A stretch of 64,000 nt of DNA from Syntrophales bacterium. GTDB lineage: Bacteria; Desulfobacterota; Syntrophia; Syntrophales; UBA6807. Location of the stretch: assembly GCA_040767195.1 (NCBI GenBank), contig JAXGPA010000003.1, positions 192,001 to 256,000 on the forward strand, written 5' to 3'. The notes under the pieces were generated by a model. The model saw nothing but the letters and a program-made list of their open reading frames with translations, searched no databases and was not told where the DNA came from. How positions within the stretch are numbered: position 1 is the first letter of the stretch; each line of letters starts with the position of its first letter. Position numbers and translations under genes: made by a program. Below, piece after piece: positions 2,934-64,000 of this stretch.

Positions 2934-4163
2934 TCACCGGATATAGCACCGCGGGTCCTCGGCGAGATAATCCCCCGAATAGGCGTGGGCCCGCCCCCGG
3001 CAGCCGCCGCATATTTTTTTGTAGCTGCACGCGGCGCATTTCCCCTTGAGCAGGGTTTCGCGGTTTCTCAGTTCCACGAAGACCGGGGATTCCCGATAGA
3101 TCTCCCGGAAGGGCTTCTCCCGAACCGATCCCGCCTTCACTTCCACGAAGGGGCAGGGCCAGATGTCACCGTTGGCCTTGATGTAAACGAAACCTCTTCC
3201 AGCAGCGCACCCGTGGAATACCTGTTCCGCCAGCTTGAGCCACCCTTTTCCCCTGGCGCCATTTTTCTCAAGGAGATAGGGCCAGTACTGCGGTCCCGCG
3301 ACGGGTTCGACGATAGTGGTTACGTCTTTCTGCTTTTCGGCGATGAGGCGGCTGAGCAGGTAGTTGGCCTGCTTTTTCAGCGTGGCCTTCTCGATCTTCC
3401 CTCCCCGGCCCACGGCGACAAGCTGGTACATGAGCATAATGGCGGCCCCGCAGCGGTCGACGAAGTCGATGAGGCCGTCAAGACCGGGGAGGTTCGTTTC
3501 CATGGCCGTGGTGTTCAGCTGGAGGAGAATTCCCGCCTTTTTGGTCGCCTCGATCCCCCGGAGGGCCAGGTCGAAGGCCCTGGGGTTGTTCCGGATGAAA
3601 TTGTGGACGTCCGGGTCTGCCGAGTCCAGGCTGATGGCGTTGCAGACAACCCCGTGTTCCTTCAGTTTCCACGCCGTCTCCTCGTCGATGAGCGTCCCGT
3701 TCGTGGCGAGAATGTTCGAAAACCCGACGTCCTTCGAATGCTTCAGGAGCTCGAAAATGTCGGGACGCACCAGGGGCTCGCCCCCGGTGAAAACGATGGT
3801 CCTGAATTCCTTGATTTCGGCGAGGCCGTCGATGAGCCGCCTGGCTTCATCGGTATCGAGATCATCCGGGGAAGGTTTCCCGCTCGTGGCATGGCAGTGG
3901 ATACAGCGCAGATTGCAGGCCGAGGTCACTTCCCAGGCGGGGTGACCGGGATAGCCGATACAGCCCATCCCCCAAGCGCCGTTGGAAACGGGGATGGATT
4001 CCAGGCTGTGGCGGACGAGCCAGTGAGGAAATTTCTTCCATCCGTTCAGGTAGCCCATGAGCAGGGCGCCCCCCAGTTGACGGAAAAGCAGGGAAGGCGG
4101 CCAGAAGACCGGGCGGACGGCCTTTTTTCGCGCCCTTTCCGTCTGTTTCGTCAGTGCTTTCAT
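2934..4163 (-). CDS. Radical SAM/SPASM-domain protein (NirJ/Ahb-like)
   Basis: CNLRCIHC motif, FTGGEPL, SPASM cysteines CAAGRG...PC...CAACSYKKICGGCRGRA...C. Confidence 0.85.
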   Translation of the reverse strand: MKALTKQTERARKKAVRPVFWPPSLLFRQLGGALLMGYLNGWKKFPHWLVRHSLESIPVSNGAWGMGCIGYPGHPAWEVTSACNLRCIHCHATSGKPSPDDLDTDEARRLIDGLAEIKEFRTIVFTGGEPLVRPDIFELLKHSKDVGFSNILATNGTLIDEETAWKLKEHGVVCNAISLDSADPDVHNFIRNNPRAFDLALRGIEATKKAGILLQLNTTAMETNLPGLDGLIDFVDRCGAAIMLMYQLVAVGRGGKIEKATLKKQANYLLSRLIAEKQKDVTTIVEPVAGPQYWPYLLEKNGARGKGWLKLAEQVFHGCAAGRGFVYIKANGDIWPCPFVEVKAGSVREKPFREIYRESPVFVELRNRETLLKGKCAACSYKKICGGCRGRAHAYSGDYLAEDPRCYIR

Positions 4164-59998: not shown

Positions 59999-60580
59999 AT
60001 GAAGACTATCGTTGACCTTATTCACCGGATTGTAACAGGGAAACAGCATGCCCGGATGTTTTTTACGCCGGTCTTCGCCGCGTTTTTTCTCGTCCTTGTC
60101 GCACTTCCGGTATGGCTTGCCCTCAAAGTCGACGCGTATTTCGGTCTTTTCCTCCCCCTTCACCATCCCTGGGATTACGTCGTTTCCCTGCCCCTGCTCG
60201 GGGGTGGCTCCCTTCTCTGGCTGTGGTCGGTGCTCCATTTCGCGAAAGCGAAAGGAACCCCCGTCCCGGTCAGCCCCCCGCCGGGACTCGTCGACACGGG
60301 CCCTTACCGGTACGCCAGAAACCCGATGCTGTCGGGGGTGTTTCTCATCCTATTCGGGATCGCTTTTCTCACAGGGTCTCCGTCCCTTCTGTTTGTTTTC
60401 ACGCCGGCGTTTATGGGCTGCAGCATCCTGGAATTCAAGCTCATCGAGGAACCGGAACTGGAGAAGCGTCTCGGTGAAACGTACCTGGATTACAAGAAAA
60501 GAACGCCCCTTCTCATTCCGAAATTCTTCCGTCGACTGACAAACCGCGCCTTGAAGACGAAAAAATCCGGTGGTGATTGA
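59999..60580 (+). CDS. Isoprenylcysteine carboxyl methyltransferase/PEMT family membrane protein
   Basis: GTPVP...LVDTGPYRYARNPM, EEPELEKRLGETYLDYKKRTP. Confidence 0.85.
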   Translation: MKTIVDLIHRIVTGKQHARMFFTPVFAAFFLVLVALPVWLALKVDAYFGLFLPLHHPWDYVVSLPLLGGGSLLWLWSVLHFAKAKGTPVPVSPPPGLVDTGPYRYARNPMLSGVFLILFGIAFLTGSPSLLFVFTPAFMGCSILEFKLIEEPELEKRLGETYLDYKKRTPLLIPKFFRRLTNRALKTKKSGGD

Positions 60581-60699
60581 GAAGAAAAACAGGATCGCGA
60601 AAGTAGAATCAGGACGAGATTCCGGGCTGAAAGAGACTCTCCGGGTGATAGGGGTATCCGTCTTTGAGTAAAACCGGCCTGCTTCCGGTCTGCACCCCT

Positions 60700-61710
60700 T
60701 CATTTCAGGGCCGCCTCGACCTTTCCGGCGACATCCGCGGGTACCCACCCGGTCCAGAGTTCTTTTTTATTTTTCAGGAACCACAGGGCGCCGTCTTCAG
60801 GCATGCCCCTGGTATCCTGCATGTAGGCGAGAATCTCGTTGTTCAGGTCCGTCGTGGTTTCGTATTTCTTCAAGAATTCGATCACCTCGGGCGCTTTCCC
60901 GGGGAGTTTCGCGTTCACGAAAATATGCACCTGGACGGGCTGAAAGGCACAGGCCTTCGTCGTGTTCCAGATCTCTTTGTCGAAGGGGGGTTCCTCGAGG
61001 GCCGTCATGTCGAGCTTTCCCAGAATCCATGAAGGCGCCCAGTAGTAACCGACCCAGGGCTTTCCCCGCTTGACGGCTGCCGTCATCGAACCGGCAAGGG
61101 CGGCGTCCGATCCCGGGATAAAATCCGTGAAATATTTATCCAGGCCGTAGGCCTTAAGCTTCTGGGAATTGATTGCGGTAACACCCCAGCCCGGGATGGA
61201 GTTGTAGAAGCGGCCCTTCGCCGGTTCTTCCGGATCCTTGAAGACTTCCCAGTATTTCGGAAGGTCGTAAACCGACTTGAGACCGGGTGCCATGGGCTTG
61301 ATGCCCCGTTTTTTGTCACCCTTGATGACAAACGTAGGCACCAGCCAGCCCTGCCAGTTGTCCCGGTAGTTGGGACCCAGGTCGATGATGGTGCCTTCCT
61401 TGAGCCCCTTGTCAAAGAGTTCCTGGGTGTTCTCCGTCCAGGACTCCATCTCCACGTCCGTGTCACCCCGCTGAAGCGCCGTGAGGAGCGAGACGGTCTC
61501 CCCGGGAACATGCTCCACACCATAACCGTAGCCGTGTTCGATGATGAAGCCGGCAATCCGGTTGTGCACCTGGATGCTGTCCCAGCTTCGGTCATTGAAC
61601 TTGATCGTTGTTTTCGCCGCCGCCGACTGAATTGCCAGGGTTCCTGAAACAAGCAAAACCGCCGCGAACATGATGACAAACCTGAATGATCGAAGTTCAG
61701 ATCCTTTCAT
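60700..61710 (-). CDS. Glycine betaine/proline ABC substrate-binding protein (ProX/OpuAC-like)
   Basis: Signal peptide; WDSIQVHN, DVEMESW, GYYWAP; GGAGG RBS. Confidence 0.85.
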   Translation of the reverse strand: MKGSELRSFRFVIMFAAVLLVSGTLAIQSAAAKTTIKFNDRSWDSIQVHNRIAGFIIEHGYGYGVEHVPGETVSLLTALQRGDTDVEMESWTENTQELFDKGLKEGTIIDLGPNYRDNWQGWLVPTFVIKGDKKRGIKPMAPGLKSVYDLPKYWEVFKDPEEPAKGRFYNSIPGWGVTAINSQKLKAYGLDKYFTDFIPGSDAALAGSMTAAVKRGKPWVGYYWAPSWILGKLDMTALEEPPFDKEIWNTTKACAFQPVQVHIFVNAKLPGKAPEVIEFLKKYETTTDLNNEILAYMQDTRGMPEDGALWFLKNKKELWTGWVPADVAGKVEAALK

Positions 61711-62096
61711 GACAACCTCCTTTTTGACTGGAATGAGAATGCCGTGGTTTTCAGCGTGATAAATTGAAACGCCGCTGTCTGAAAAATCTTTCTGTACCGG
61801 TGAGCAGGGAAAAAGCGGTCGCTTTGGAAAAACGGAAAGCCAAGCCGATATTTACCTTTTAGTTAACAGCATTCGGAACCAATTTCTACTTTTTTTTAGC
61901 CGGCTCACGTCGACGAAAAGAGCGGGATGAAGAAGCAGCCATGAAATAGAAGAGGCAAAGCATTCGAAACCTCGGCGCGGTCATTCTTTCCGCCCGATGG
62001 GTGGGAGCATACCCTCAAAAGAATCACCGGAGGCCTGATCAGTGCCTTCGGAGCCGGTATTTCTGCTTCACCGACACCATAACATTTTGATATTTC

Positions 62097-62125
62097 TTGA
62101 CAGGCTGGAAATTTTTTCTTAAAAT
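62097..62125 (+). promoter_or_regulatory. Near-consensus sigma70 promoter of the peptide operon
   Basis: TTGACA (62097-62102)-17 nt-TAAAAT (62120-62125). Confidence 0.75.
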
Positions 62126-62161
62126 TTTCCCCACATTCATTTTTACCGTGTAGGAGGGGCC

Positions 62162-62275
62162 ATGAAGAAAGAGGAACGGAAAGAAAAAAAAGAGGAGAAA
62201 AAAACCTACGAGAAGCCCGCGCTGACGGGCCATCAAAAGCTGACAAGTGTCATAGGTAAATTCTCACCGTCATAA
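62162..62275 (+). CDS. Small peptide 1 with lasso/RRE-type leader (37 aa)
   Basis: AGGAGG RBS; MKKEERKEKKEEKKTYEKPALTGHQKLTSVIGKFSPS. Confidence 0.75.
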   Translation: MKKEERKEKKEEKKTYEKPALTGHQKLTSVIGKFSPS

Positions 62276-62312
62276 CCGGAACAGGAAACGTCCTTTACCA
62301 GGGAGGGGGAAA

Positions 62313-62441
62313 ATGAAAAAAGAGACGAAGAAAGGTAACAAAATAAAAAAAGATTACGAGAAGCCCGAACTCACGCGGCACGGGAAGCTGACGGACGTGG
62401 GGTCGTTCATTTCTCCACCGGAGGTTAATCATTTGGAATGA
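62313..62441 (+). CDS. Small peptide 2 with lasso/RRE-type leader (42 aa)
   Basis: GGAGG RBS; MKKETKKGNKIKKDYEKPELTRHGKLTDVGSFISPPEVNHLE. Confidence 0.78.
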   Translation: MKKETKKGNKIKKDYEKPELTRHGKLTDVGSFISPPEVNHLE

Positions 62442-62493
62442 TGATCATGATTTGAACAGATTTTCCAGGTGAAATTTCAGTGGAATAGACAGT

Positions 62494-62521
62494 GCCGTCC
62501 TTCGGGGCGGCCTTTTTATTT
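62494..62521 (+). terminator. Intrinsic terminator of the peptide operon
   Basis: GCCGTCC-TTCG-GGGCGGC followed by CTTTTTATTT. Confidence 0.8.
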
Positions 62522-62560
62522 GTCCGGGGGTTGAAAATGGCATTGGAATTTAAAAATGGC

Positions 62561-62595
62561 AAAGAAAAAGGGGTCAGCTTTCTGTCGCTGACCCC
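62561..62595 (-). terminator. Intrinsic terminator of the tRNA pair
   Basis: GGGGTCAGC/GCTGACCCC 9-bp stem followed on the minus strand by TTTTTCTTT. Confidence 0.75.
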
Positions 62596-62605
62596 CTGTA
62601 TTTAC

Positions 62606-62682
<77 letters not shown>

Positions 62683-62727
62683 AAATCTTTTCTATCCATT
62701 CAAGGAATCGAGGGATTCCTTTTTCCC

Positions 62728-62803
62728 TGGTAGGCGGAACAGGACTTGAACCTGTGACATCCACGGTGTAAACGTGGCGCTCTCCCAACTGAGCTATCCG
62801 CCC
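62728..62803 (-). tRNA. tRNA-Val (TAC)
   Basis: GGGCGGATAGCTCAGTTGG...CCACG-TTTACAC-CGTGG, TTCAAG T-loop, CCA end; 76 nt. Confidence 0.96.
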
Positions 62804-62868
62804 GTCAATTATCCCAGCGGAACGTGCCGGGTTTGTATACGGAACCCATTCCGTTGTCAAGAACAATT

Positions 62869-64000
62869 TCAGTTCATGGGGGCCCCGGCATGCCGCCCCG
62901 ACTCCCTGACCTGGCAGCCCGTGATGGGGGTGTCCCCGATCTGGGGGATGTCCTCCCCTTCCCTCAGGGCCACCTTGAGGACTTCGTCCATGTTCTCCAC
63001 GCAGATCACTTCGAGATCCTTGAGGACGTTCTTGGGAACGTCCGCCAGGTCCTTCCGGTTCTCACGGGGAATGATGACCGTGTGTATGAGTCCCCGGTGG
63101 GCCGCCAGCAGTTTTTCCTTCAGGCCGCCGATGGGGAGGACCCGGCCCCTCAAAGTGATCTCCCCGGTCATGGCCACATCGCTCCGGATCATCCGCTTCG
63201 TCAGGGCCGACGTGATGGCCGTGGCCATGGCGATGCCCGCCGAGGGTCCGTCCTTGGGGATGGCCCCTTCGGGAACGTGGACGTGGATATCCGTTTCCTT
63301 GTGAAAGTTCGGGGACAGGCCGAGGGCGTCCGCCCTGGAACGGACATAGGTGAAGGCCGCCTGGGCCGACTCCTGCATGACGTCTCCGAGTTTACCCGTC
63401 AAGGTGATTTTTCCCGAACCGGGGATGACGGACACCTCCACGGCGAGGAGCTCCCCGCCCACTTCCGTCCAGGCGAGCCCGTTGGTCAGGCCGATCCGGT
63501 CCTTCTCTTCCTTTTCCCCGTAGCGGAACTTGGGAACCCCGAGATACGTCTCCACCGACCGGGAGGAGACGCGGATCCGCTTCTTGTAACCGCTGGTCAC
63601 GATTTTCCGGGCCACCTTGCGGCAGATGGAGGCGATCTCCCTCTCCAGGTTCCGGACACCCGCTTCCCGGGTGTACTCCCGGATGATCCTCAAGATCGCC
63701 GAATCGGCGAAATCGATCTGCTCCGCCTTCAGCCCGTTTGCCTCCAGTTCCTTCGGAACGAGATATTTCCTGGCGATATTCAGCTTTTCCGGCTCCGTGT
63801 ACCCGGCGATGCGGATGACTTCCATCCGGTCCTGCAGGGGCGCGGGGATCGTCTGGAGAATGTTCGCCGTGGTGATGAACATGATGTCGGAAAGATCGTA
63901 ATCCACCTCCAGGTAATTGTCGTTGAAGGCCTTGTTCTGCTCCGGGTCGAGGACCTCGAGAAGGGCCGCCGCCGGGTCTCCCCGGAAGTCGGAGCTGACC
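62869..64000 (-). CDS. lon: ATP-dependent protease La (LonA), 5'-truncated by window edge
   Basis: [37 protein letters not shown]; frame open to window end. Confidence 0.96.

Follow-up and report, generated by a model that had tools for sequence, protein, structure and literature searches.

The window, the whole 64,000-nucleotide stretch of Syntrophales DNA analyzed here (from genome G000, which is 98.8% complete), carries close to its 3' end two short tandem ORFs lying between a promoter-like site and a terminator. The cassette and its surroundings are organized as follows.

62097–62125 (+): sigma70-type promoter-like site, TTGACA-17-TAAAAT, identified by motif match
62152–62159 (+): ribosome-binding site of ORF1, AGGAGGGG, identified by sequence
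62162–62275 (+): precursor 1 (ORF1), 37 aa, with a Lys/Glu-rich N-terminus and the leader motif YEKPAL (Tyr at 62207)
62258–62272 (+): predicted core of precursor 1, KFSPS, with Ile at −2, Ser3 and a C-terminal Ser5; register taken from PMC10368454 and an alignment with the TbiA leader
62302–62309 (+): ribosome-binding site of ORF2, GGAGGGGG, identified by sequence
62313–62441 (+): precursor 2 (ORF2), 42 aa, with the leader motif YEKPEL (Tyr at 62355)
62406–62438 (+): predicted core of precursor 2, FISPPEVNHLE, with Gly at −2 and Ser3; an alternative register with Val at −2 would give the core SFISPPEVNHLE
62494–62521 (+): intrinsic terminator, GCCGTC-C-UUCG-G-GGCGGC followed by a U run (hairpin 62494–62511, UUCG loop)
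62606–62682 and 62728–62803 (−): tRNA-Asp(GTC) and tRNA-Val(TAC), respectively, outside the operon
60700–61710 (−): glycine-betaine-type ABC substrate-binding protein (OpuAC), a divergent neighbor and unrelated context

All the elements named in a preliminary description of this locus (promoter, both ORFs, their ribosome-binding sites and the UUCG terminator) were found in place, and the sequence TTTACC...GGAGGGG precedes both ORFs. Taken by itself, the promoter-like match is no more than chance would give (2 found versus 1.5 expected from shuffles of positions 60000–64000); a TTGAC lies at a comparable distance, 62–65 nt 5' of the first start codon, in five of the six cassettes of this type in the genome, and at 86 nt in the sixth. 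The terminator hairpin has a folding energy of −16.3 kcal/mol (z −3.2), and its sequence occurs four times in the genome, every time behind a cassette, ending four of the six.

A gene that we take, from its sequence, to be Lon-like flanks the cassette. As previously described, no maturase adjoins it, and no maturase of the core set defined below was found next to the window cassette or those on contigs C9 and C10. The cassette sits just past the 3' end of the tRNA-Asp gene. Its genomic place is lineage-specific, because three relatives (G001, G002 and G003) carry other genes behind the same tRNA pair, with no peptide following it; the corresponding locus of G245 stops at the tRNA. No duplicate of the 3' end of tRNA-Asp resembling an att site was found in the window, so this line of evidence does not mark the cassette as an integrated element. 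Two of the three precursor regions of G000 lie at tRNA 3' ends. The region on C10 (G000:C10:104195-109524; L002) contains four precursor cassettes around an acetyl-CoA-synthetase-like gene (identified by eye) and an ACT-domain gene, and ends beside a tRNA-Pro.

The two peptides had been described as paralogous. A profile built from eight peptides retrieved both of them among 10 ORFs in G000 with E ≤ 9e-12, the next match having an E value of 1.1. These 10 paralogous precursors, which also answer the proposed search for further small YxKPxL ORFs, are distributed over six cassettes, with two precursors in the window, one on C9 and seven on C10. The family as a whole, relatives included, has the leader consensus YEKPxLxxxxKL/DLxDVT and two leader subtypes, basic (TRHGKL) and acidic (VYEDL), with the window pair belonging to the basic subtype. 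A looser scan for [YWF]xxPx[LIVM] with a ribosome-binding site yielded 34 ORFs, eight of which were family members; the other 26 were discarded as unlike precursors on inspection by eye. Peptide 2 scored above the cut-off of the lasso leader model NF033521 (lasso_leader_L3; 19.5 versus 19 bits), peptide 1 had no match to this model, and four of the 10 paralogues matched it at E ≤ 1. In one C10 paralogue (G000:C10:104195-104338; L002:8196-8343), an in-frame TAG comes before codons for PGLGCTRF, a tail that is in frame in two other paralogues; this paralogue is either a truncated copy or a candidate for read-through. Behind the C9 precursor, and in the same orientation, lies a formyltransferase gene (PF00551; G000:C9:65502-66968, L004:7503-8969). 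Formyltransferases occur in five further cluster loci, all in relatives, and the likeness between these and the C9 protein is limited (35% over 92 residues).

The putative cognate enzymes are encoded by a single operon on a contig other than that of the window.

G000:C8:228645-232688: maturation operon of five genes, encoding an RRE protein (92 aa), a B2-type peptidase (151 aa), a radical SAM/SPASM enzyme (337 aa), an HprK-related kinase (353 aa) and a PF14907 nucleotidyltransferase (361 aa)

The preliminary description made its reading depend on an RRE protein in the genome and proposed looking for one together with peptidases and nucleotidyltransferases. PqqD/RRE, Transglut_core3 and NTP_transf_5 each gave a single match in the genome, all three in this operon. 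The closest solved RRE is TbiB1 (PDB 5v1v; E 1.3e-7), with PDB chains 9x90 and 9x8z matching more weakly. The B2 protein keeps Cys86 and His120 (six aligned sequences) and scores above the PF13471 cut-off, whereas its score for NF033537 is 30.4 bits against a cut-off of 33 in G000 and 48.2 bits in G023. His170, GxGKT and Asp208-Asp209 are retained in the kinase, spaced like the essential H148 and D186 of BsfK. The operon contains no precursor, cyclase or ABC exporter, and no SpI- or SipW-like leader peptidase, its peptidase being of the B2 type with no further gene inside. Converging on it are genes for a DUF362 protein and for a B12-binding radical SAM enzyme. Membership of the NCBIfam systems HPr-rel-A, HPr-rel-B, SynChlorMet and GeoRSP was considered and rejected, all scores being below the curated cut-offs (TIGR04352, 80.6/200; TIGR04355, 35.9/200; TIGR04248, 35.9/100; TIGR04250, 103/400; TIGR04303, 110/400).

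LGCTRF/L tails occur in two genomes, G000 and G245, and in both the SPASM enzyme adjoins the kinase; it is missing from the clusters of G001 and G458, the peptides of which contain no Cys. Judging from these four genomes, it probably serves the LGCTRF/L-tailed paralogues and not the window pair. Between the B2 and SPASM genes on C8 lies a spacer of some 160 bp (L003:14063-14225), which is also present in L121; these genes nearly abut in the near-identical locus L118 and in L120, and the spacer is possibly a small inserted repeat element. The window itself holds a further radical SAM/SPASM-like gene (2937–4163, −), with 25% identity to the C8 enzyme, beside a prenyltransferase-like ORF (identified by eye), with no precursor of the YEKPxL family near it.

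We investigated whether peptides and enzymes occur together in relatives. The peptide family was found in 16 of 339 genomes of the order and the kinase, at E ≤ 1e-10, in 44 of 339, the latter splitting into 14 genomes with E < 1e-97 and a remainder at 6e-21 or weaker. All 14 genomes with a close kinase are among the 16 with peptides, a pattern rather than a test, as the profiles were built from G000, G001 and G023 and ten positives belong to one genus, so that the counts are not independent. The other two genomes, G123 and G126, have one peptide each and no close kinase orthologue, and one of these two peptides lacks a core. In 12 of 17 peptide-bearing genomes, the kinase has a precursor no more than 8 kb away, four rows of this count having been entered from earlier locus readings.

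Gene order in relatives links peptides and enzymes directly. G001 has only the four core genes (RRE, B2, kinase and transferase), with a precursor just downstream, and G023 has six precursors between the kinase and a DUF362-B2-B12 enzyme group. In G245, eight basic-subtype precursors lie beside genes for a kinase, SPASM enzyme, B12 enzyme and DUF362 protein with 61–64% identity to their G000 orthologues; this genome also shares the LGCTRF tail with G000. G458, from another order, reproduces the C8 gene order without the SPASM enzyme and carries three precursors, all with Ser3, between the transferase and the B12 enzyme, where G000 has about 50 bp. The YxxPxL motif is kept in homologous loci. 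Kinases without an adjoining precursor were found in G000, G120 and G140, the last of these having precursors on a different contig, together with B2 and the B12 enzyme. Dispersed copies, mostly with canonical junctions, are common in the family, occurring also in G001, G114, G116, G117, G120, G122 and G135. The kinase tree has two clades matching the basic and acidic leader subtypes, and its long branches make it descriptive only. A scan of the phylum gave two matches in 400 genomes, G458 with peptides and G514 without, using a profile of the basic subtype only, which therefore missed G023. Collection scans with kinase alignments, which are insensitive, gave five and four loci, and named records bearing these kinases come from Syntrophaceae, Smithella and Syntrophales. 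Accessory enzymes differ between clusters, with the B12-radical SAM enzyme and DUF362 recurring in distant ones.

The loci of relatives also revealed additional gene groups. A protein of 359 aa that matches nothing in Pfam or NCBIfam (L062:2558-3634; homologues in L093, L094, L097, L100, L103, L107 and L111) adjoins precursors in seven acidic-subtype loci, often away from the kinase, and is absent from G000; Atlas suggests a U32-type family for it (0.94; PF01136 on 63% and 20% of the members of the best clusters), and it is a candidate tailoring enzyme. A second, unrelated cassette, consisting of an RRE (~150 aa), a nucleotidyltransferase and a long HprK-like protein (L101:1569-4245, L126:4846-10136, L128:5537-9705, L039 and L040), lies among glycosyltransferase-like or membrane genes without a family precursor and explains some of the weak kinase matches. 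Another RRE-dependent system, with a radical SAM enzyme, an RRE and a YEKP peptide with the Cys-rich tail CKQCSSCHGC, is encoded at L129:167-1243 (G123:C28). Finally, L116 (G017:C29) combines a kinase, an RRE, an AsnB-like cyclase and a canonical B2, and is likely a genuine phosphorylated-lasso cluster within the order.

The earlier proposal of dispersed, RRE-dependent precursors modified in trans is supported by the search of the genome, by synteny with relatives and by the co-occurrence pattern, and the window ORFs are very likely precursors of the C8 operon. As no G000 precursor adjoins this operon, the link of the window copies to it is by family, not by position.

Transcription of the cassette, which the preliminary description proposed checking, was assessed with low-depth RNA contigs from four of 13 listed runs (four samples, one study). 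Pieces of 86–240 nt, mostly without differences, cover positions 62159–62560 in these four runs, including both ORFs, and cross the inter-ORF gap in every run. Contigs start at 62159–62212, and positions 61634–62103 are uncovered in all four runs, such uncovered stretches being no sign of silence. The cover weakly points to a bicistronic transcript starting behind the promoter, DNA in the libraries being another possible source. Pooled pN/pS was 0.35 (10 paralogues, 15 leader codons), and the window pair differs at eight of 11 synonymous versus six of 34 non-synonymous sites. Both window ORFs are under purifying selection, and because of this selection they are presumably translated. The precursor cassette is real and looks expressed, and an operon in trans can be identified as its cognate.

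Modeled with peptide 2, the RRE scored 0.70, versus 0.01 for the best control, with the interface formed by peptide residues 12–26, at least 80% contact agreement between runs and a partner pLDDT of 59–60; 116 of 157 solved complexes and two of 215 mismatches reach this mark, counts that are approximate for self-made alignments. Because the similar complex TbiB1-TbiA (PDB 5v1v) is solved, the result may reflect likeness to that complex rather than binding as such. The family has only the recognition module in common with TbiB1-TbiA, which comes from a lasso pathway.

The cleavage site was predicted by placing the leader Tyr at −17. In the Bsf leader, the YxxPxL residues are at −17, −14 and −12 (PMC10368454), and the TbiA leader can be aligned gap-free, though weakly (E 0.74), to the family profile. 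After identical duplicates had been merged, 70 distinct peptides were obtained, one of which had no core and was dropped, leaving 69. This register moves the leader/core boundary of the preliminary description, giving KFSPS and FISPPEVNHLE, and puts the G1-E8 ring once proposed for peptide 2 out of register. The cores have a median length of eight residues, most having 4–15 and 11 of 69 only four or five. Thr is at −2 in 53 of 69; its absence, noted earlier for the two peptides, therefore holds for the window copies and their subtype, but not for the family. Position +1 is occupied by Gly in 32 of 69 (9.8 expected from shuffled cores) or Gln in 10 of 69 (2.7 expected), 42 of 69 in all.

Ser is present in 65 of 69 cores versus about 24 expected. 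In the basic subtype, nine of 24 cores have Ser3 (3.1 expected), 16 of 24 have Ser at position 3 or 4 (6.0 expected) and four of 24 lack Ser; all 45 acidic-subtype cores contain Ser, but position 3 is not enriched (six of 45, 7.6 expected). Only four of 69 cores, including that of precursor 1, end in Ser. Both window cores depart from the family at −2 (Ile and Gly, respectively) yet keep Ser3. Ile at −2 is natural in BsfA, a proven B2 substrate, and BsfB2 is very sensitive to this residue, changes at which block cleavage, according to PMC10368454. Gly at −2 is limited to peptide 2 and the C9 copy, the other 67 of 69 peptides having Thr, Val, Ile, Met, Leu or Ala, and peptide 2 may be cleaved poorly.

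Each of the four cluster loci in which a glutaminyl cyclase is encoded has a Gln1 precursor, versus one of the nine entered kinase loci without a cyclase of this kind; the lone exception, G245, has the glutaminyl cyclase elsewhere in its genome. No glutaminyl cyclase was found in G000, G001 or G117, which also have Gln1 cores. The pairing fits the proposed cut site and a free, cappable N-terminus, and enzymes capping the N-terminus would fit linear products rather than lasso rings.

In a search covering mainly the openly accessible literature, we came across no account of this system in Syntrophales, nor of any kinase/transferase pathway that is cyclase-free and B2-dependent. RRE-peptidase pairs have reportedly been surveyed by Kretsch et al. 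in 2023. The family had been called undescribed, which has to be qualified: its enzyme set matches that of the LPP pathway (lppA-K-B-S-D-N) of Bacillota (Popov et al. 2026, PMC13381572), except that B2 takes the place of SpI. The likeness comprises an RRE encoded as a discrete protein, a kinase of the HprK type, an NTP transferase, a YxxP leader, Ser3, in the window peptides, as the expected site and no macrolactam cyclase. The two systems differ in peptidase (SpI in LPP, a Cys/His lasso B2 here), exporter (MsbA-like in LPP clusters, none in those described here), leader (YxxPxVLxHQxIxFETxxS versus a lasso-type YxxPxL...T/V-x), core length (45 residues in LppA, 4–15 in most of our peptides), the dispersal of up to 10 precursors away from the enzymes and the accessory genes found here (radical SAM, B12-radical SAM with DUF362, formyltransferase and glutaminyl cyclase). 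In PMC13381572, LPPs are called restricted to Bacillota, the main text makes no mention of Syntroph, Desulfo or Proteobacteria, and a term search of the supplements gave only two Myxococcota SpI rows, without an RRE. The window system works like the LPP pathway but falls outside LPP as defined there, because it has B2 rather than SpI, no MsbA-like exporter, another leader consensus and far shorter cores. New here are the use of B2 as peptidase, cores of such small size, clusters without an exporter and ten precursors located wholly apart from their enzymes; the LPP paper had foreshadowed the type of chemistry.

The system can equally be described as the Bsf lasso cluster (Bradymonas sediminis; Duan et al. 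2023, PMC10368454) minus its cyclase and exporter. Both have B1, B2, a kinase and a nucleotidyltransferase, with Tyr at −17, Pro at −14 and Leu at −12 in the leader, tolerance of Ile or Val at −2 and RRE-dependent phosphorylation of core Ser3, which is reported for Bsf and expected here. Bsf has a cyclase, an exporter and a 21-residue G1-D8 core, whereas neither of these genes nor a ring-competent window core is present here. The paeninodin and pseudomycoidin systems (PadeK; PsmK and PsmN) likewise use an HprK-like kinase and a nucleotidyltransferase on a Ser of a lasso-type precursor, and peptide 1 ends in Ser; theirs are, according to PMC8498205, lasso peptides modified at the C-terminal Ser, unlike most cores in this family.

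On these grounds, we consider it likely that the window ORFs form a stand-alone bicistronic RiPP-precursor cassette, processed in trans by the C8 operon into linear phosphopeptides; that the products are linear and phospho-Ser based is, taken separately, quite likely. Each chemical step is proposed by homology. Once the cassette has been transcribed and, as selection suggests, translated, the RRE would bind the YEKPxL leader, as in the model. The kinase would then phosphorylate or polyphosphorylate a Ser near the start of the core, Ser3 in both window peptides, like LppK and BsfK, which modify core Ser3 (PMC13381572 and PMC10368454). Addition of a nucleotide or sugar to the phosphate by the nucleotidyltransferase is the least certain step, suggested by PsmN, for which nucleotide or sugar transfer to phosphate has been reported in vivo (PMC8498205); LppN showed no activity (PMC13381572). 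Cleavage by B2 17 residues past the Tyr would release a linear 5-mer and a linear 11-mer. The radical SAM enzymes would be accessory, probably acting on only some of the ten precursors, for instance those with an LGCTRF/L tail. An ORF with a Walker A motif and an ABC signature was found within 8 kb in none of 15 cluster loci, several of which stop at a contig end. Because the clusters hold no exporter, the products may act intracellularly or leave by a general route.

A bolder reading is that one orphan operon serves ten independently promoted cores of 5–15 residues, which would become intracellular nucleotide-peptide or cofactor-like molecules through phosphorylation of Ser, transfer of a nucleotidyl or sugar group, capping of the N-terminus and steps catalyzed by radical SAM or B12-dependent enzymes in syntrophic anaerobes, making this a separate, non-exported, lasso-derived RiPP class rather than a variant of LPP; we regard this as doubtful.

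The preliminary description also raised the possibility of decoy or titrating leader peptides. For the family as a whole, this finds no support, dispersed copies being frequent and mostly endowed with canonical junctions; peptide 2 alone is still a candidate. That the window copies, above all peptide 2, are uncleaved RRE-binding decoys tuning pathway flux would accord with the rare Gly at −2, with the blocking of BsfB2 by changes at this position (PMC10368454), and with an intact RRE-binding part under the cassette's own promoter. However, both peptides keep Ser3 in the family register, a register one residue shorter gives peptide 2 a Val at −2, and the Ile(−2) of peptide 1 has its counterpart in the natural substrate BsfA (same source), making this explanation improbable. 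Recent duplicates, still expressed but drifting and no longer yielding a useful product, are a slimmer prospect still: the lineage-specific site, the five-residue core of peptide 1 and the TAG-interrupted C10 paralogue would suit them, but the excess of synonymous over non-synonymous changes in the window pair would not, nor would the intact promoter, ribosome-binding sites and terminator, and cores of four or five residues are a recurrent feature of the family.

It is highly improbable that the kinase step serves only as an activation, for elimination, rearrangement or radical chemistry, with an end product such as a cofactor-like or nucleotide-peptide molecule. The tiny cores, variable around one Ser, the absence of an exporter from 15 of 15 loci, the B12-radical SAM and DUF362 genes shared by distant clusters and the fact that the final LPP product was itself not identified (PMC13381572) are compatible with such a role. 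Against it, no lyase or further conserved enzyme was seen, the accessory enzymes vary by cluster, being absent altogether from the four-gene cluster of G001, and characterized homologous kinases leave stable phosphates (PMC10368454, PMC8498205 and PMC13381572).

The window peptides had been judged not to be canonical lasso precursors, and our data agree. Lasso features that are present include the YxxPxL leader with a discrete RRE (B1) and a B2 cysteine peptidase; two defining ones, a macrolactam cyclase and a ring-competent core with a tail, are lacking. A cyclase-like gene was absent from all 15 cluster loci, bar one 23-residue match at E 0.008, and the NF033535 lasso cyclase cut-off was reached in none of five genomes, G023 having no match. 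Asp or Glu at positions 7–9 with a tail of at least five residues occurs in one of 69 cores, which is neither of the window cores. Two AsnB-like proteins of G000, encoded among glycosyltransferase-like or methyltransferase-like genes (identified by eye), score best as asparagine synthases and reach 186 and 116 bits against a cyclase cut-off of 525, and eight of 16 peptide-bearing genomes have only weak, partial PF00733 matches (best E 1.6e-7 or weaker). Cyclization in trans by an asparagine-synthetase-like protein encoded elsewhere in the genome, which the lasso-type leader, RRE and B2, the two AsnB-like genes and the kinase and transferase shared with Bsf-type lasso clusters (PMC10368454) might suggest, is rejected on these scores, on the lack of a cyclase in the 15 loci and on core composition, and we give it next to no credence.

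The reading as linear, trans-processed phosphopeptides bears on LPP-type pathways, for which end products, roles and the reaction of the PF14907 nucleotidyltransferase are at issue and to which this system offers short, easily synthesized substrates. With its natural variation at −2 and in the position of Ser, and a five-gene operon with one RRE, it makes those questions directly testable. It indicates that, outside Bacillota, a pathway without a cyclase can make use of the lasso B1/B2 module, and that precursors can leave their cluster entirely, where cluster-centered mining would miss them: in G000, the operon appears to have no precursor and the precursors appear to have no enzymes.
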